This document shows positions 2,903 through 31,097 of a stretch of DNA of 42,888 nucleotides, one piece after another. This DNA comes from a virus (lineage: Duplodnaviria > Heunggongvirae > Uroviricota > Caudoviricetes), in IMG/VR virus record IMGVR_UViG_2734482773_000006; one strand, 5' to 3'. Every line of letters begins with the position of its first letter. The stretch's first letter is position 1. The notes below the pieces were generated by a model. The model was not told where the DNA came from and ran no database searches. It was given only the letters and a program-made list of their open reading frames with translations. The position numbers and the translations under genes are program-made.

Positions 2903-3502
2903 TCAGAATTTATAACCGACACCCACGATGAAACCGTCAGTGCGCCAGTCACCACTGCCGGAGCCTTCATAAGCAATATCAATGGCCACGGATTCGGTCG
3001 GGTTAAACTGCACGCCAGCCCCCCACGCCAGAGACGTGTTGCTGTGGCGACCGTCATCACTTCCGGTCAGCACATCGTGCGTTTTCCCCTTGTTGTCAGT
3101 TACGCGAAGATAATCCCCGGAGAAAGTCGACACACGGCTGTAAGCTACACCCGCCATCGCATACGCGCTGAACCATTCATTCACGCGCACAGACGGCCCC
3201 GCCATTACGCTGAACCAGCGGTTACGAACGGAATCTTCATGCCAGCGGGTATCGCTGTAACGGGTCAGCTGGCGATTCTTGTCTCCTGCATAGCTGAATG
3301 ACGTCACCAGCCCCAGTGTGTCCGTAAACTCATAACGGTATTTCACGTTAATCCCGTTCAGATCATCACTGCCGGGGACGTTCGTCGAGGCATGAAGATA
3401 CCCCGCGCTCAGCGTGGACTGATGTTCAGACGCCCATGCAGGCGCACCGGATACGGCCAGACAAATGGCTGCGGACAAAATTGCTGCACAAACTTTACGC
3501 AT
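2903..3502 (-). CDS. lom: Outer membrane protein Lom (Ail/Lom family)
   Basis: 199-aa ORF with signal peptide, ends in aromatic residue (beta-barrel); position between J and stf as in lambda. Confidence 0.9.
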   Translation of the reverse strand: MRKVCAAILSAAICLAVSGAPAWASEHQSTLSAGYLHASTNVPGSDDLNGINVKYRYEFTDTLGLVTSFSYAGDKNRQLTRYSDTRWHEDSVRNRWFSVMAGPSVRVNEWFSAYAMAGVAYSRVSTFSGDYLRVTDNKGKTHDVLTGSDDGRHSNTSLAWGAGVQFNPTESVAIDIAYEGSGSGDWRTDGFIVGVGYKF

Positions 3503-22983: not shown

Positions 22984-23342
22984 ACATCCCGGTTTCTTCC
23001 ACCATCGCACCGGAAAAGCGACTATGAGGGTAACCCTGCGTCTGTCAGCACAGTAAAACCCGGTGTGCATCGTTTTTGATTATTCCCGCACACTCACGCA
23101 GAAGGAATTCCCCGTCGGGCTACGGTCATGGTTAATGCGGGAATACGGCGACGATACAGCGCAGCTAAAAGGGTAATGGACAGATAGAGCGGTTTATTTC
23201 ATTCCACAGGATTCTGAGTGCCCCCCTCCTCCAATAGGCTGAGCATCCACCTATATAGTTTTAATTTTCATCAATCCATTTAACTATCGTTTAATTGTTG
23301 TCACATAGGATTCTGCCGTTTTTAACAATGCAGGATAATAAG

Positions 23343-23636
23343 ATGAAAAAAATGTTGTTTTCTGCCGCTCTGGCAATGCTTATTACAGGATGTGCTCAAC
23401 AGACGTTTACTGTTGGAAACAAACCGACAGCAGTAACACCAAAGGAAACCATCACCCATCACTTCTTCGTTTCGGGAATTGGACAGGAGAAAACTGTTGA
23501 TGCAGCCAAAATTTGTGGCGGCGCAGAAAATGTTGTTAAAACAGAAACCCAGCAAACATTCGTAAATGGATTGCTCGGTTTTATTACTTTAGGCATTTAT
23601 ACTCCGCTGGAAGCGCGTGTGTATTGCTCACAATAA
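23343..23636 (+). CDS. bor: Bor lipoprotein (serum resistance-associated lysogenic conversion protein)
   Basis: ORF track 23295..23636; internal Met begins MKKMLFSAALAMLITGCAQQTF (lipobox LITGC); ends EARVYCSQ as lambda Bor; convergent with Rz as in lambda. Confidence 0.9.
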   Translation: MKKMLFSAALAMLITGCAQQTFTVGNKPTAVTPKETITHHFFVSGIGQEKTVDAAKICGGAENVVKTETQQTFVNGLLGFITLGIYTPLEARVYCSQ

Positions 23637-23667: not shown

Positions 23668-24129
23668 CTATCTGCACTGCTCATTAATATACTTCTGGGT
23701 TCCTTCCAGTTGTTTTTGCATAGTGATCAGCCTCTCTCTGAGGGTGAAATAATCCTGTTCAGCGGTGTCTGCCAGTCGGGGGGAGGCTGCATTATCCACG
23801 CCGGAGGCGGTGGTGGCTTCACGCACTGACTGACAGACTGCTTTGATGTGCAACCGACGACGACCAGCGGCAACATCATCACGCAGAGCATCATTTTCAG
23901 CTTTCGCATCAGCTAACTCCTTCGTGTATTTTGCATCGAGCGCAGCAACATCACGCTGACGCATCTGCATGTCAGTAATTGCCGCGTTCGCCAGCTTCAG
24001 TTCTCTGGCATTTTTGTCGCGCTGGGCTTTGTAGGTAATGGCGTTATCACGGTAATGATTAACAGCCCATGACAGGCAGACGATGATGCAGATAACCAGA
24101 GCGGAGATAATCGCGGTTACTCTGTTCAT
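23668..24129 (-). CDS. Rz: Spanin inner membrane subunit Rz
   Basis: ORF track 23668..24141; lambda Rz begins M(S/N)[19 protein letters not shown]; start abuts R stop. Confidence 0.9.
23727..23909 (-). CDS. Rz1: Spanin outer membrane lipoprotein Rz1, embedded in Rz in the +1 frame
   Basis: 60-aa ORF with lipobox VVGC and PPPPP stretch, fully inside Rz. Confidence 0.85.
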
Positions 24130-24623
24130 TGCTGACCCCACAAACAGATTTCACGCTCAATCTCACGACGAGTCATGAGACCTTTCCATTGCTTACCGCC
24201 AGCATATGTCCAGCGACGTAGCTGATCACATGCGCCTTTGATATCGCCCTGGTTTATTTTGCGAAGAAGCGTCGATGTTCTGAAATTGCCAGCACCCACG
24301 TTGTAAACGAATGAGTAAAGAGCGCCGCGCATTGTTTCCGGTATATCGACTTTGATGTACGGGTTAATTTGTCTGGCGACCGTGGCAAGGTCTTTATTCA
24401 GGAGGGCTTTGCATTCTGCTTTGGTATACGTTTTACCGAGCATGATGTCTTTTCCTGTATGCCCGTGACATACAGTCCATACACCAACAATATCTTTGTA
24501 TGGTATGTAGCTGACACCTTCCAGACCATCGTTACCACTTGGGCCAGTGATTAACACTGATGCTATAGCAATTGCTCCGCCACCAATAGCAGCAGCAACG
24601 GCTTTTCGTAATGATGGAGGCAT
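24126..24623 (-). CDS. R: SAR endolysin (phage 21 R-type lysozyme)
   Basis: 165 aa; N-terminal Gly/Ala-rich signal-anchor-release segment [18 protein letters not shown]; matches phage 21 R / DLP12 RrrD as recalled. Confidence 0.9.
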
Positions 24624-24838
24624 TATTCACCTCTCGCAGCCTTGCGCTTATCTTCTTTAATCTTGAAATAAAGGTTTGTCAGGTACGTCAGCAGGCCAAA
24701 TACCAGGCTACCCAGCACACCTATTGCTGCCCACTGTGAGGGCGTGACTTTATCGAGCAGCTGTAAAAACCAGTAACCGGCACTACCTGCTGAGGTGCCA
24801 TAGGCGACACCCGTTGTTAACTTATCCATGGATTTCAT
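24623..24838 (-). CDS. S: Pinholin (phage 21 S-type, two transmembrane domains)
   Basis: ORF track 24623..24883; internal start MKSMDK (dual-start motif) matches S21 as recalled; ends [11 protein letters not shown]. Confidence 0.85.
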
Positions 24839-24883
24839 AACCCCACCTCGCAGACAAAGCGGGTGTAAATTGAGGGAATACAA

Positions 24884-25427
24884 CGTATCGCAAAAAAGCA
24901 GAAACGTAACAGACTCGGAGTCAGTGAATAACTCAGGTATTGAGTTATCAGCTAATATCGAGACTCAAAAAATGGAAAAACCAGCTCGACGGCGGGTTTA
25001 AGCTGTGTGACGAAGTAACCACTCTTAACAGCATAACCAATTTTTTACGTACGTAAACCACTGAATGATATTTATGAGAATGCTACCGAGTGTTCAAAAC
25101 ACCACCACAAATACATAAGAAAACCTCAACAAATAACCAATAAATAATTTCCGGCGTTATTTTTAGTTAATTTAAATTAAACCACCGAATTATAGACCCC
25201 CCCATAAATAACAGCCATTAATATAAATTAGCTAATAGGTTTATTTTTGTTCAAATAAGAGCCATAAATAGGTTTCGATAGAAAAAGTTCAGATAAAAAT
25301 AGAGATCTACTTCACAAATTAAATGAGAAACTAAAACTTACATCTTGAAATAATCACATTGATTAGATGAATATTTATCGCGCAGTGACATCATTTTTTA
25401 ATAATAGTTCAAAAAAAAGGGCTCACG
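24884..25427 (+). promoter_or_regulatory. AT-rich upstream regulatory region of the porin gene (putative promoter and regulator binding sites)
   Basis: ~540 bp non-coding, strongly AT-rich, directly upstream of the porin start; no tRNA-like structure recognised by eye. Confidence 0.35.
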
Positions 25428-26525
25428 ATGAAAAAATTAACAGTGGCAATTTCTGCTGTAGCTGCATCAGTACTGATGGCGATGTCTGCTCAGGCAGCTG
25501 AAATTTATAATAAAGACAGTAACAAGCTGGATCTGTACGGAAAAGTTAATGCCAAGCACTACTTTTCCTCTAACGATGCAGATGATGGTGATACTACTTA
25601 TGTTCGTCTGGGCTTCAAAGGCGAAACCCAAATCAACGATCAGCTGACTGGTTTCGGTCAGTGGGAATATGAATTCAAAGGCAACCGCGCTGAATCTCAA
25701 GGTTCCTCCAAAGACAAAACCCGTCTTGCATTTGCAGGCCTGAAATTCGGTGACTACGGCTCAATCGATTACGGCCGTAACTACGGTGTAGCATACGACA
25801 TCGGTGCGTGGACTGACGTTCTGCCAGAATTCGGTGGCGATACCTGGACCCAAACAGATGTGTTCATGACTGGTCGCACCACTGGTGTTGCAACCTATCG
25901 TAACAACGACTTCTTTGGTCTGGTTGATGGTCTGAACTTTGCTGCTCAGTACCAAGGCAAAAACGATCGTAGCGATTTCGATAACTACACCGAAGGTAAC
26001 GGTGATGGCTTCGGTTTCTCTGCTACCTATGAATACGAAGGGTTCGGTATCGGTGCAACTTATGCGAAATCTGATCGTACCGACACTCAAGTTAATGCAG
26101 GGAAAGTTCTTCCTGAAGTATTTGCTTCCGGTAAAAATGCAGAAGTTTGGGCCGCAGGTCTGAAATATGACGCTAACAACATTTACCTGGCCACTACCTA
26201 TTCTGAAACCCAGAATATGACTGTATTTGCTGATCACTTCGTTGCTAATAAAGCTCAAAACTTCGAAGCTGTTGCACAATATCAGTTCGATTTCGGTCTG
26301 CGTCCGTCCGTTGCTTACCTGCAATCTAAAGGTAAGGATCTTGGAGTATGGGGCGATCAGGACTTAGTCAAATATGTTGATGTAGGTGCAACCTATTACT
26401 TCAACAAAAATATGTCTACTTTCGTTGATTACAAAATCAACCTGCTTGACAAAAATGACTTCACTAAAGCACTCGGTGTAAGCACTGATGACATCGTTGC
26501 TGTAGGTCTGGTTTACCAGTTCTAA
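25428..26525 (+). CDS. nmpC: Outer membrane general porin, NmpC/Lc (OmpC/OmpF family), intact
   Basis: 365-aa ORF with signal peptide [23 protein letters not shown] and C-terminal VGLVYQF; matches DLP12 NmpC / phage PA-2 Lc as recalled; lies between Q and S on the opposite strand. Confidence 0.9.
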
Positions 26526-26529
26526 TCTG

Positions 26530-26690
26530 ATTACGAAAAAGATATGTTGCGGGAGGCTTTGCCTCCCCAACATATAAGTGGCTCCCTCAAGCCACTTCCT
26601 TTAGGAGCACAACCTTGCTTCTAACTATATAAACCTTCTGTTATATATTACCCTTTATTTTTGGGGGCGTTGCAACGCCCCATTTTTAAT
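26530..26690. terminator. Two GC-rich hairpins between porin and Q: candidate porin terminator (plus strand) and tR'-like terminator of the short PR' transcript (minus strand)
   Basis: Hairpin GGGGCGTTGCAACGCCCC followed by TTTTT on plus strand (~26657..26690); long hairpin around GCGGGAGGCTTTGCCTCCCC (~26540..26580) followed by a T-run on the minus strand. Confidence 0.4.
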
Positions 26691-26714
26691 AATTTTTAGT
26701 AAACAATTGGCATA

Positions 26715-27098
26715 TTAATTAGAGTTATTAACAACGATATCCATCTCTAACCGGATATCTAATGCCATTAACATCCCTTCAATTATGCCCTCAGCCTTCT
26801 GTAACCTTTTCCCGATATAACCATCAGAGCAGCAATGCTTACCTGCCAGTGACATTAATGTCATACCGACTACATAATAATCTACTAATAAATCGTGCAA
26901 ATCGCTGTTGTTCTTTTTCAGACGGGCCATGCACCCGCAAATGATCATCGCGTCATCGTCACAACATTGCGGGCGAGATTTTACTTTTGAAGGAATTAAT
27001 CCCTTAAAACCGGCGGCAATGGACGACCAGGTCACATCTTCATGATTATTAGCCGCCCACGCTCCCCAACGCTCAAGAACCATCTGAATATCACGCAT
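26715..27098 (-). CDS. quuD: Late gene antiterminator Q (phage 82/DLP12 QuuD type)
   Basis: ORF track 26715..27113; internal start [18 protein letters not shown]; Cys-rich zinc-binding region; matches DLP12 QuuD as recalled. Confidence 0.85.
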
Positions 27099-27320
27099 CA
27101 ACTTACTCCACAAAAATCAGACCAGAACGCCAATTACAAGCAAAAATCAACAAAACAGTATTAGTTGATTGTTATCTCTGACTTCATACTCCTGCTCCTG
27201 TCAGGGTTTTGGCGTAATTCTTCAGTATTCGGTAATCGGTCAAAACAGAACCGGGGAAACGATATAAGCGCAGACGCCCCCAGCGGTGGCGAAGAAGTTC
27301 TGCCATATTAAACTCAAACA

Positions 27321-28588: not shown

Positions 28589-28813
28589 GCTTCACCTCCG
28601 CAGAGGTCAAACGTTGGATGCAAAAAAACGCAGGTGCATTTCTGCATCTGTGAATGGAGAAGATAGGTTGGATTGTATGTGCGCATAAACGTCCCCGTTT
28701 AGCGCAGAAGTCACCGGAGTTGTTCAGGCTCCGGCTTATTAATATTGCCTACTTACAATTAATTTTTCAACTGTTAGAAACTTATAATTAGCTGTCTCTT
28801 TGTAACTATCAAT

Positions 28814-30709
28814 TTAATTATTTTTCTTTAACTTGAAATTTCTTCCCATTGCTAGTGTTCTTCGAAGATTCGAATCATAAGCTGGTTGATAATATCTATC
28901 ATAAAAATCCTTAATTGTCTGATGGTAAGTATCCAGCATCAAACCATAAAACCCCCTAACCTTAAGATAATCCACCAAGGGAAATAAATAATCATCAGTC
29001 TGAACATCAGTATCAATATTATTTTTTTGTTTTTTAACTTCAAATTTGTATAAGTTTAACTCACCCTTATCCATCGTGCATGAAAAAAGGTCGTCAAAAA
29101 TCAAATCAATTTCTGTCATAGGAACTCGTTCTTTTCCAGACATTATAGGTAGAATATCAATACCTAAGAGCGAACCTAATACAAAGTCGTAATGAAGCGA
29201 AATCACTGAGTCATTCGATGTCGAGTTGCCTTTGATAAATACTCTACTTAGTGCCGAGTCAAAAACATTCTCAACTCTCTCTCTCGTCATGTTTGCGACA
29301 TCTACAACTCCCATATCACGAGAAGCTTTTATTGTGATTTCATCTATAAATGCTTTGGAATCTAGTGAATGTAAAAACAACATGAAGTTATCTAACTGTT
29401 CAGAGCATTTAATAGCCACCATAAGATTTTCGTATATATCTTTTTTATACTCAATCGGTAAATTTGCTACCGCAAAAGCAGCATAAAATTCTTGCACTGA
29501 TTTATGCAGAAAAACATACCTATTATTTCCCTCAGGTTGGATAAGGCAAGTTATCTCAATAAGATCATCTATAAAGTTTGATGCATCTTCTTTAAGATAA
29601 CCTTCTGTTTCAATAGCATCTTCAGCATATCTAAGCAACTCCTCTCCCCAAAACTCAAATTTCTCCTCAATCAGTGCGTTATAGCAAATAGCTGAAAAAC
29701 ACAATTTAGCTTTTTCACCAATAATGTTTGATTTTTTCTCGCGCGTATATACTTTTATTTTATCATGCCTTGCATATAAGGTGTCAAAGAGGCTTCGATA
29801 AAACTCTATTATATTATTTGGAATATCATTCATATAAGGATAACAATAATACAAAAGAGTAACTAAAATTGGATTGCAAATAGTTCCCTCAAGTTCTTCT
29901 TTATCACATAGTAAATCCGCCAAGACTTTAAACGAGGCATCACTACTTGAGAATCTGTCATTTTTCGATAAAGAATGAAGAATACAAATCTTATCAGAAA
30001 TATTTAGCTTATCTATAAAAATATTATACACATCAGTAGTATAACATATATCTGTATTTGGTCTCGTTGTTGCGATAATTGGTGTGTTAAAATGATAATG
30101 AATGTTTTTTATTTCATTCATCATCATAGTTCGCTCTTCATGTTTAACCTCATCAAATCCATCCAACATTAAAACGACTCTTTGGGATTGCAGTAATATT
30201 TTCAAGCTATCCTCTGAACACCCCACACCAAATGAATTAAGAATGTCTGCCAGATAAGCAATAATATTTGCATTCTTCACCCTTCTTAATTCAATAAAAA
30301 AAGGCATCCGTTCTGATTTTTTTATTTCCTCGCTAAACAACTTGCGTAAAATAGTACTTTTCCCTTGCCCCGCTATACCGACTATATTTACAATACCATG
30401 AAATGGTAAAGTGACCCCATCTTTTATAACGACCTTGTCTTTATTAGATGCCACCTCAACAGTTAACGGATAATAAATATCATCTAAAAAAATATCATAA
30501 TCAGCGTTGTGCAAAGTTCTCATTTTCAGAGATGGTAGCACATGCTTTCTTAAATAATTTTCTCTTCCGAGGGGATCATTTAATTGTTCGAGTATAACCT
30601 TGCCTTCATCTAGGTCCCTAGCCCAAGGTTTAGAGAGCAATACTTCTGTTATTTTTTCCGCAGCTTTTCCTACTGTGCTATTAATAATAGTCGCAAGAAA
30701 CTCATCCAT
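28814..30709 (-). CDS. NACHT/STAND-family P-loop NTPase (bacterial NLR-like), candidate single-gene anti-phage defence protein
   Basis: ORF track 28814..30766 (650 aa); likely start at internal Met (30709) preceded by GGTGA; Walker A GIAGQGKST (ORF aa 130-138), Walker B VVLMLDGFDE (197-206), TTRP (233-236); visibly AT-rich gene with AT-rich non-coding flanks. Confidence 0.7.
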   Translation of the reverse strand: MDEFLATIINSTVGKAAEKITEVLLSKPWARDLDEGKVILEQLNDPLGRENYLRKHVLPSLKMRTLHNADYDIFLDDIYYPLTVEVASNKDKVVIKDGVTLPFHGIVNIVGIAGQGKSTILRKLFSEEIKKSERMPFFIELRRVKNANIIAYLADILNSFGVGCSEDSLKILLQSQRVVLMLDGFDEVKHEERTMMMNEIKNIHYHFNTPIIATTRPNTDICYTTDVYNIFIDKLNISDKICILHSLSKNDRFSSSDASFKVLADLLCDKEELEGTICNPILVTLLYYCYPYMNDIPNNIIEFYRSLFDTLYARHDKIKVYTREKKSNIIGEKAKLCFSAICYNALIEEKFEFWGEELLRYAEDAIETEGYLKEDASNFIDDLIEITCLIQPEGNNRYVFLHKSVQEFYAAFAVANLPIEYKKDIYENLMVAIKCSEQLDNFMLFLHSLDSKAFIDEITIKASRDMGVVDVANMTRERVENVFDSALSRVFIKGNSTSNDSVISLHYDFVLGSLLGIDILPIMSGKERVPMTEIDLIFDDLFSCTMDKGELNLYKFEVKKQKNNIDTDVQTDDYLFPLVDYLKVRGFYGLMLDTYHQTIKDFYDRYYQPAYDSNLRRTLAMGRNFKLKKNN

Positions 30710-31097
30710 TTTTTCACCACATTCATTAACCAATACGTGGTGCATTCTTACAAGACTCAGTAACAATTGTCAATCATAGGTTTTCGCATGATTGCAAAAC
30801 GCCATAAACAATTGTAGCACCATAATTTTAAACACTATATAATATACAACCTTCCTACAAGCATTCAGTACATCGCTTAATCACAGGGCTTGAATATATA
30901 GTAAGGAATCGATATTAATCACCTCATCTACTTTAAACATCTTACACACCTATAATTTATAATAGTCAACACGAGGTCATCATATTAAACATGCAATTAC
31001 AAACATTCATTTTTATATAAATTTTCATGATTTAACCGTAGGGCGACGGTAATAAATTTCATATACAAGGATTTAAGCTCCCATACGTTTTCTATTA

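Follow-up and report, generated by a model that had tools for sequence, protein, structure and literature searches.

Gene content between Q and the lysis cassette

The window, a 42,888-nucleotide stretch of tailed-phage DNA (IMG/VR record IMGVR_UViG_2734482773_000006), carries a porin gene on the opposite strand between its antiterminator gene Q and its lysis genes. The span 24884-26714 is the gap from the longest possible S open reading frame, with a TTG start, to the Q stop codon; the annotated S start is an ATG at 24838, so that the S-porin intergenic region comprises 24839-25427. The genes and the elements at the porin 3' end are as follows.

26715-27098, minus strand: antiterminator Q of the quuD type, 127 aa (PF06530, E 1.8e-53)
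26536-26597, minus strand: pair of Q-strand hairpins, of which the second (26575-26542) has CUUUUU after it
26526-26698, plus strand: structured porin 3' UTR (ipeX region), ending in an intrinsic terminator and T-run
26664-26681, plus strand: porin intrinsic terminator GGGGCGTTGCAACGCCCC, a terminator-like match in the scan with a T-run after it
25428-26525, plus strand: nmpC/lc porin coding sequence, 365 aa and stop, uninterrupted
25428-25496, plus strand: porin signal peptide; the mature protein begins AEIYNK and ends YQF
24623-24838, minus strand: S21-type pinholin/antiholin essD, 71/68 aa with dual start (PF04971; RefSeq annotation of an identical locus)
24126-24623, minus strand: SAR-type lysozyme
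after the lysozyme in the lysis cassette, minus strand: Rz/Rz1

The Q protein is 98% identical to K-12 QuuD, 80% to H-19B Q and 30% to Q21, the structures of which are a distant match, and every porin-bearing phage record carries the same Q type. The lysis cassette opens with essD, which follows the predicted start of late transcription at a distance of 185 nt. With Q, S, R and Rz/Rz1 on the minus strand and the porin on the plus strand, the antisense position between Q and the lysis genes described by the first-pass annotation stands. A tRNA gene search returned none. The C-terminal 250 aa of the prophage J protein share 53% identity with lambda J and 91% with J of mEp460, a comparison that yields no receptor assignment, whether to OmpC or to another protein.

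The porin is covered end to end by Porin_1 (PF00267; 1-337 of 337 profile positions, 521 bits, E 1.8e-156) and scores 527.8 bits against the NCBIfam OmpC-subfamily model, for which the cut-off is 484. Residues 24-365 align with mature OmpC crystal chains from residue 1 to the last residue; because residue 24 aligns to residue 1 of mature OmpC, residues 1-23 constitute the signal peptide, and a sig_peptide of equal size (69 nt) is annotated in the record of phage PA-2 (J02580). The C-terminus, GLVYQF, ends in the aromatic residue of the beta-signal, and the loop-3 PEFGG constriction motif is present (LPEFGGDTW). An intact 365-aa general porin with a signal peptide and a C-terminal aromatic residue, as had been claimed, is thus borne out. 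The protein is 63% identical to K-12 OmpC, which suggests a trimeric 16-strand beta-barrel with pore activity; by its family it would function as an OmpC-like general diffusion porin, exported by the Sec route through the 23-residue signal peptide and inserted into the outer membrane through the C-terminal YQF signal. PADLOC returned nothing for the porin, bor, lom-like or NACHT proteins.

Downstream of the porin stop codon, positions 26520-26720 are identical to K-12, PA-2 and 434B at 197 of 201 positions, and the fold of 26526-26660 reaches -47.1 kcal/mol (z = -7.3). An Rfam scan of the whole window at the gathering threshold returned no family, IpeX included. By likeness to K-12 and PA-2, the porin transcript would end at its own terminator, past this highly structured 3' UTR. 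The Q-strand hairpins are also stable (-36.2 kcal/mol, z = -7.2, none of 200 shuffles equally stable), with a T-run on the minus strand only, and are predicted to act as an intrinsic terminator on RNA coming out of Q, 10 nt short of the porin stop codon. The gap between Q and the porin therefore holds convergent terminators, of which the strong minus-strand one (26575-26536) would shield the porin against transcripts that leave Q without antitermination. A simple promoter scan of the minus strand of 26526-26714 gave no promoter-like site. Candidates picked manually in the gap, such as TTGCAA-19-TAATAT, were all poor and were rejected.

A late promoter homologue beyond the porin

Sequence homology places a late promoter cassette of the Q933/H-19B type on the far side of the porin, next to S.

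24971-25057, minus strand: homologue of the Q933/H-19B-type late promoter cassette (PR')
25057-25052, minus strand: PR' -35, TTTACG, followed by a 16-nt spacer
25035-25030, minus strand: PR' -10, TATGCT
25023, minus strand: predicted late transcription start, A, with the conserved leader AGTGGTTAC...
about 25005-24971, minus strand: hairpin and U-run after PR'

The stretch 25058-24976 (minus) matches Stx phages at ~76-77% (E 1e-7 to 2e-6, 2.3 Gb searched), at a site that overlaps the 3' end of Q, on the Q strand, in ~290 Stx phage records; the alignment has the -35, spacer, -10 and leader in common. This homologue (25057-24971, minus) is the sole one in the window and lies between the porin and S, and its core, TAAGAGTGGTTAC, occurs once. 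Among 8 porin-bearing phages, the ~75-bp PR' block is invariant and the adjoining spacer variable. The homologue scores 8 of 12 against the consensus, and the simple promoter scan did not list it.

In H-19B, the corresponding promoter (TTTACG-16-TATCAT, with the start 7 nt past the -10) yields a transcript that measures exactly 258 nt up to the final U of tR', and the PR'-to-tR' distance in the Sakai Stx phages is likewise 258 nt by dRNA-seq and Term-seq (Sy et al., PMC7547250). With these Q933/H-19B-type phages (StxS region), whose Q is 80% identical, the window shares the -35, spacer, -10, start region and first hairpin with U-run. There, however, the cassette abuts Q, its -35 overlapping the Q stop codon, and runs on to tR' 258 nt downstream, whereas in the window a 1.7-kb porin cassette intervenes, the 3' part of StxS is absent and the homology of the late transcript is confined to its first ~55 nt. 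The hairpin and U-run after PR' are clear in K-12 and H-19B. K-12 DLP12 has a C at the position of 24983, yielding a perfect tR'-like stem, whereas the window, as PA-2, has an A, and its hairpin (MFE -8.4 kcal/mol) is no more stable than shuffles. No other convincing terminator was found in the 185-nt late leader; because the A at 24983 weakens the hairpin, the terminator expected to render late transcription dependent on Q is not convincingly identified here.

Phage 21 is annotated with an equally compact arrangement, in which PR' starts 6 bp past Q. A PR' directly downstream of Q is what would be expected for a cassette of the Q21/Q933W family; it is not found here, where the cognate homologue lies 1.66 kb further on, at 25057. 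Since the sole cognate PR' homologue lies beyond the porin and the Q-porin gap is without a promoter, we read the porin as cargo between Q and PR', with Q-dependent late transcription that should therefore not cross it. By homology, a porin cassette of ~25059-26745 would represent an insertion that parts the 3' end of Q from the PR' -35, and late transcription would run from ~25023, divergently from the porin and 405 bp from its ATG, into S-R-Rz. As judged from these alignments, the intact nmpC/lc gene is most likely an insulated cargo between Q and PR', with its own promoter and terminator, that stands outside the late operon.

The first-pass annotation had instead placed the porin within the late operon, to be crossed by antisense transcription from PR' and thereby switched off on induction. 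Its place in the operon is not supported, as late transcription would reach the PR' homologue (25057-24971, minus) only after the porin; the antisense crossing is at odds with a gap that lacks a promoter-like site and holds a strong minus-strand terminator facing the porin 3' end; and a switch-off from PR' is unexpected with the homologue past the porin. The useful outcome is this correction, that PR' should be placed between the porin and S and not beside Q. Models for regulation at this locus, whether of the porin, ipeX, the DLP12 lysis genes or IS5 activity, should accordingly expect divergent porin and late transcription, not convergent or antisense transcription.

Porin expression and other routes of transcription

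Upstream of the porin, the intergenic region 24839-25427 has a GC content of 33.8%, compared to 51.2% for the whole window, in agreement with the AT-rich upstream region noted earlier. It contains the following control elements.

25299-25427, plus strand: porin promoter region, with CRP site, -35, -10, transcription start and ribosome-binding site AAGGG
25299-25319, plus strand: CRP site annotated in PA-2, identical to J02580 1363-1383
25345-25350, plus strand: probable porin -35, TTGAAA
near 25369-25374, plus strand: probable porin -10
near 25380-25382, plus strand: probable porin transcription start, G
25003-25023, plus strand: 'CRP site 1' of the 1986 PA-2 record, identical to J02580 1067-1087
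25379-25411, minus strand: sigma-E-like promoter essDp, reported for the DLP12 lysis cassette; TGAACTA, 16-nt spacer, GTCAC, transcription start near 25379

Antisense transcription could also reach the porin on induction from the early right operon, if antiterminated transcripts initiated at PR passed through the 26575-26536 terminator. By gene order, Q can be expressed only from upstream early transcription of the minus strand, and N-type antitermination overrides intrinsic terminators in lambdoid phages; the two-hairpin terminator is, however, very stable, and we regard this route as a minor possibility.

In the lysogen, the porin would be transcribed from its own sigma-70, cAMP-CRP-activated promoter, lying no more than ~130 bp upstream, to judge from the near-identical K-12 and PA-2 sequences. 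The ipeX UTR would in addition lower OmpC/OmpF synthesis, and we therefore propose a partial exchange of porins in the lysogen; IpeX function was reportedly described by Castillo-Keller (2006), to which PMC3333887 refers. The promoter block is nearly invariant among 8 phages and prophages, the promoter-proximal 130 bp being identical to K-12 and PA-2. In K-12, PnmpC has been mapped to less than 199 bp from the ATG and is activated by CRP and repressed by OmpR, IHF and MprA (PMC11677980).

That reported repression would fit a gene that is intact yet silent in this host and confers no conversion phenotype, as would the term 'quiescent porin gene', used for nmpC in E. coli B in the title of Prilipov et al. 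1998 (cited in PMC3333887). We consider such silence quite unlikely, given the identity of the promoter-proximal 130 bp to K-12 and PA-2, the activity of the K-12 promoter (PMC11677980) and the ~2% of the proteome that NmpC makes up in K-12 NCM3722, where nmpC is intact (PMC8144880). In the same strain, OmpC is reduced more than 10-fold relative to the MG1655-derived EQ353 (PMC8144880), and these NmpC and OmpC levels document for nmpC the lysogenic conversion that had been suggested.

The canonical layout in lambda, phage 21 and Stx phages would place PR' and its terminator in the Q-porin gap, with Q-modified polymerase running antisense through the porin to S and silencing it on induction, and the strong minus-strand terminator in the gap might pass for tR'. 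Phage 1H12 has a related Q and, after it, what reads in sequence as a promoter (TTGCTG-17-TAATGT) and a terminator resembling the StxS/tR' terminator ahead of an antisense blc gene, and 434B, a deposited complete phage genome with DLP12 nmpC::IS5, is compatible with long-distance read-through. (1H12 was rejected as a clean control: its Q C-terminus differs and its PR' is not assignable by homology.) Against this arrangement, the minus strand of 26526-26714 offers no promoter-like site, the gap matches the ipeX 3' UTR of nmpC/lc at 98% identity, and the only cognate (Q933-type) PR' homologue, in a block invariant among porin-bearing phages, lies beyond the porin. A PR' beside Q is thus very unlikely here.

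The essDp promoter lies back to back with the porin promoter, and its sigma-E motif reading, itself tentative, reportedly goes back to Rueggeberg (2015). It is highly improbable that essDp, starting at ~25379 (minus) and responding to Q in the way published for DLP12, is the effective late and lysis promoter and the PR' homologue a relic: control by Q, RpoE and Hha is cited in PMC7918800, the primers of its '-121 to +650' amplicon map onto window 25500-24727, which is how the promoter was positioned, and TGAACTA-16-GTCAC reads at the right distance, but a sigma-E requirement for all late genes would be unusual in a functional phage, and the PR' block shows perfect conservation among active phages and is also kept in Stx phages, which have no essDp. 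As essDp also starts downstream of the porin ATG, it does not rescue antisense transcription of the porin.

Relatives of the porin and its probable site of insertion

The feature is an intact nmpC/lc, the porin 'moron' that is classically associated with lambdoid prophages of the DLP12/PA-2 type. PA-2 Lc (J02580; Blasband, Marcotte and Schnaitman 1986) is identical to the window porin at 362 of 365 residues, with the three substitutions V59A, R99H and V154F (window residue first) and otherwise nothing notable; lc shares with the window gene the signal peptide, two annotated CRP sites of identical sequence, the 3' UTR, and its position and orientation beside S21-type lysis genes. With IS5 removed, nmpC of K-12 DLP12 (qsr') likewise encodes 362 of 365 identical residues, and the ~99% identity to both bears out the NmpC/Lc assignment. 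The gene order quuD-nmpC-essD-rrrD-rzpD/rzoD-borD is common to DLP12 and the window (colinear, 95-99% nucleotide identity). As had been stated, the K-12 copy is disrupted: IS5 splits it at a CTAA target after codon 346, whereas the window copy is uninterrupted. DLP12 is also defective, in contrast to the window prophage with its full head, tail and lysis gene set, and lacks 16 bp upstream of S that the window has.

With OmpC of E. coli and OmpD of Salmonella, the window porin has in common the fold family, the PEFGGD loop-3 motif and the YQF terminus, but it is prophage-borne; gaps in the alignment to K-12 OmpC show shorter external loops in the window porin. Porins of the window type are, unlike OmpC, under cAMP-CRP and not EnvZ/OmpR activation (PMC8144880, PMC11677980). 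Several phage records label the porin 'OmpD'.

The Q-porin-S-R module is carried by at least 2,396 of the 5,426 complete E. coli genomes and by 36 phage records, which makes the porin a common, known lysogenic-conversion gene. No fewer than 760 complete E. coli genomes have an uninterrupted K-12 IS5 site, and an intact copy is not unusual. Conversion by the phage-borne porin nmpC/lc has been a textbook case since the 1970s-80s, and the gene itself adds nothing new.

The cassette has its own promoter, by identity to the mapped K-12 PnmpC, and its own terminator, by terminator scan and fold, and it is present or absent with sharp junctions among homologous phages. In phages with the same S, homology is lost ~16 bp upstream of S; in those with a related Q, it is lost ~8-17 codons before the Q stop. 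In PhiR55_1, a different cargo precedes the same PR'-side junction: Q stops at the LEMD breakpoint of homology, directly before an opposite-strand 148-aa gene, which is followed by a PR' homologue and late genes. In SfIV, two opposite-strand genes lie upstream of a PR' homologue and the late genes, Q being ~2.9 kb upstream by the record coordinates, outside the stretch compared. The interval from the end of a Q933/QuuD-type Q to the PR' -35 is short and may be a recurrent docking site for opposite-strand, terminator-bracketed cargo, although we hold this broader reading, together with the carbon link considered below for the porin, to be unlikely; if true, such cargo, being bracketed by terminators, would be expressed in the lysogen and spared late transcription.

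The porin control region abuts PR', and 'CRP site 1' (25003-25023) falls on +1 to +21 of the late RNA predicted to start there. Through this CRP-annotated site, the expression of late genes or lysis might in principle respond to carbon status. Its sequence is conserved also in H-19B, which has no porin.

Porin gene and its relatives

The window is a complete-looking lambdoid E. coli prophage whose 24600-27150 segment is 100% identical to the corresponding locus of strain 2014C-3307. As the first-pass annotation had described, a full-length general porin gene lies on the opposite strand between Q and the lysis genes:

Genes around the porin ORF
26715-27098, -, Q/quuD, preceded by ybcN, ninE, ybcO, rusA and ylcG
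25428-26525, +, porin ORF
24623-24838, -, essD (gene S, S21-type holin), beyond the gap after Q
24126-24623, -, rrrD, SAR-type lysozyme
beside rrrD, -, Rz/Rz1
23295-23636, +, bor/iss moron adjoining the lysis genes

The porin covers positions 1-337 of the 337 in Pfam Porin_1 with an E-value (1.8e-156) small enough to exclude a chance match, scores above the cut-off of the NCBIfam OmpC-subfamily model and is 63% identical to K-12 OmpC, with mature OmpC crystal chains aligning end to end with residues 24-365. It has a 23-residue signal peptide, a PEFGGD loop-3 motif and a C-terminal YQF. Two more outer-membrane morons are present, bor/iss and a Lom/OmpX/Ail-family gene adjoining the tail fibre genes (2903-3502, -).

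The gene is nmpC/lc, already known, very common and here in its known context. K-12 nmpC is interrupted by IS5 at a CTAA target after codon 346, and the window copy is uninterrupted, as first claimed; when both K-12 fragments are joined across IS5, the resulting 365-residue NmpC differs from the window porin at 3 residues (31 of 1098 nt), and Lc of phage PA-2 (J02580) likewise differs at 3 residues. The whole Q-to-S stretch of DLP12 in K-12 is colinear with the window at 95-99%. In the promoter-proximal 130 bp, the window, PA-2, K-12 and 434B have essentially the same sequence, and both CRP sites annotated in PA-2 occur without mismatch (25003-25023 and 25299-25319).

Counting presence as at least 80% coverage, 2,396 of the 5,426 complete E. 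coli genomes carry the 2.5-kb module, as do 36 phage records, some of them from phages grown on the E. coli hosts K-12, C and ECOR13. When a 120-bp sequence spanning the K-12 IS5 site was used as a probe, at least 760 genomes gave an uninterrupted match, and the split matches came mainly from K-12 derivatives; hence, the intact copy is the normal state and the K-12 interruption the exception.

The regulation and role of the porin here would follow those shown in relatives of near-identical sequence. A CAGTGGC segment at codons 5-7 (25441-25447, +) is complementary to the 5' end of the sRNA RybB. This complementarity is consistent with nmpC mRNA being a RybB target (PMC3333887). The nmpC promoter, PnmpC, is of the sigma-70 type and lies no more than 199 bp from the ATG; CRP activates it, and OmpR, IHF and MprA repress it. 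It works even in K-12, driving the IS5 transposase there (PMC11677980). In NCM3722, a K-12 strain with intact nmpC, carbon limitation induces NmpC, which makes up ~2% of the proteome, and OmpC is more than 10-fold below its level in the MG1655-derived strain EQ353 (PMC8144880). The proposed lysogenic conversion by an intact porin is thus established biology in relatives, and textbook material, rather than a new hypothesis.

Predicted position of the late promoter

The first-pass annotation also placed the porin inside the late operon, crossed antisense from PR', the late promoter of the phage, and so switched off at induction. This idea is most likely wrong. The window Q belongs to the Q21/Q933W family (PF06530), being 80% identical to Q of the Stx phage H-19B and only 30% to Q21. 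The annotated cassette of phage 21 is compact, with a -35 lying 6 bp after Q, a Q-binding element between -35 and -10, and a pause element and terminator within ~50 nt. Directly after Q, H-19B carries TTTACG-16 nt-TATCAT, then AGTGGTTAC... and a hairpin with a U-run. A start 7 nt past this -10 gives an RNA of exactly 258 nt up to the last U of the downstream terminator tR', equal to the PR'-to-tR' length measured by dRNA-seq and Term-seq in Sakai Stx phages (Sy et al., PMC7547250), which identifies the H-19B element as PR'. Its homologue in the window, the predicted late promoter, lies between the porin and S, away from Q:

Predicted PR' and terminators in the Q-porin gap
25057-24971, -, PR' homologue, by homology to the H-19B cassette
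25057-25052, -, its -35 (TTTACG), followed by 16 nt
25035-25030, -, its -10 (TATGCT)
25023, -, predicted late start A, then AGTGGTTACTTCGTCACACAGCTTAAACCCGCCG...
26664-26681 plus T-run, +, terminator at the end of the porin 3' UTR
26597-26542, then CUUUUU, -, very stable two-hairpin terminator facing the porin gene end (-36.2 kcal/mol, z = -7.2)

A database search matched the PR' segment to ~290 Stx phage records at ~76-77% identity; among the matches listed in annotated records, it lies over the 3' end of the annotated Q gene, on the Q strand. The PR' core 13-mer occurs once in the window. Among 8 porin-bearing phages and prophages differing by at most 9% overall, a ~75-bp block over the element is invariant and the sequence separating it from the porin promoter (~25085-25290) varies. 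A 14-nt perfect palindrome, TTTACGTACGTAAA (25044-25057, -), overlaps the predicted -35, with an equally palindromic counterpart at the same place in H-19B, TTTACGATCGTAAA; it may serve to bind a protein, perhaps as the Q-binding element.

Base 24983 belongs to the stem of the hairpin that first follows predicted PR'; it is A in the window, PA-2, ev099 and ev207 and C in K-12, 434B, ev243, ev017 and 1W. With A, the stem is mispaired, which weakens the putative terminator: the K-12 and H-19B versions fold well, whereas the window version folds no better than shuffled sequence. A search of the S leader found no other convincing terminator. A 16-bp segment of this leader, GTATCGCAAAAAAGCA (24897-24912), is shared by the window, PA-2 and most of the phages and is absent from K-12 and 434B.

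The Q-porin gap is porin 3' UTR, and no promoter-like site was found in it on either strand. Across a 201-nt alignment spanning this 189-bp gap (26520-26720), the window matches K-12 and PA-2 at 197 positions. The gap is presumably the ipeX element, which Castillo-Keller et al. 2006 are reported to have shown to lower OmpC/OmpF. Secondary structure is exceptional on each strand of 26526-26714 (z about -7.2 for both), with one set of hairpins forming the IpeX structure on one strand and the terminator on the other. IpeX is cited elsewhere as a regulator of ompC (PMC3333887).

Antisense transcription could still arise from the early operon, possibly reading through the post-Q terminator and across the porin during lytic growth. 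Work on DLP12 describes a sigma-E-dependent, Q-responsive promoter upstream, essDp. The primers of PMC7918800, mapped onto the window, place its start at about 25379 (-), so that it and the porin promoter stand back to back. Because this start lies beyond the porin ATG, essDp lends the antisense model no support.

Proposed cargo between Q and PR'

Homology to H-19B ends ~10 codons before the window Q stop (...LEMD) and restarts at the PR' -35, so that ~25059-26745 behaves as a cargo cassette. It would have entered at precisely the site of the usual overlap of Q and PR', bringing the porin with the regulatory region, the ipeX UTR and the terminators, together with a substitute tail for Q. With such a cassette between Q and PR', PR' and the porin promoter would be divergent, with starts ~360 bp apart, the late transcript would have a 185-nt leader before S, and the porin would be neither within nor antisense to the Q-dependent transcript.

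Other phages carry different genes on the opposite strand. Phage 1H12 (L004 2802-3482) has one for a lipocalin (Blc) in the porin's slot, after a related Q (84% identical), and a - strand terminator between Q and blc resembles the StxS/tR' terminator of Stx phages. In PhiR55_1, whose Q ends at LEMDR, Q and the PR' homologue directly flank a different gene on the opposite strand (L008 1290-1736), which precedes the same PR'-side junction. Upstream of its PR' homologue, SfIV carries two genes on the opposite strand (L009 222-1644), with Q ~2.9 kb further upstream in record coordinates. The PhiR55_1 and SfIV cargo proteins (148 aa, 356 aa and 108 aa) gave no Pfam matches. The sole mildly new point is that, in this Q family, genes on the opposite strand appear to dock as cargo between Q and PR'.

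Other loci

The nin region contains a NACHT-domain NTPase gene (28814-30766, -; 631-650 aa) with a GC content of 28-37%, far under the window's 51%. PADLOC gave no match for it; it may be a defence gene carried by the prophage. Its product and the NACHT protein of strain 2014C-3307 are 100% identical; in that strain two extra genes, a hypothetical and one for a P22AR C-terminal-domain protein, lie between ybcN and the NACHT gene (L002 23990-25696). Both are absent from the window (~28589-28813), which is therefore not the very same prophage but a mosaic relative.
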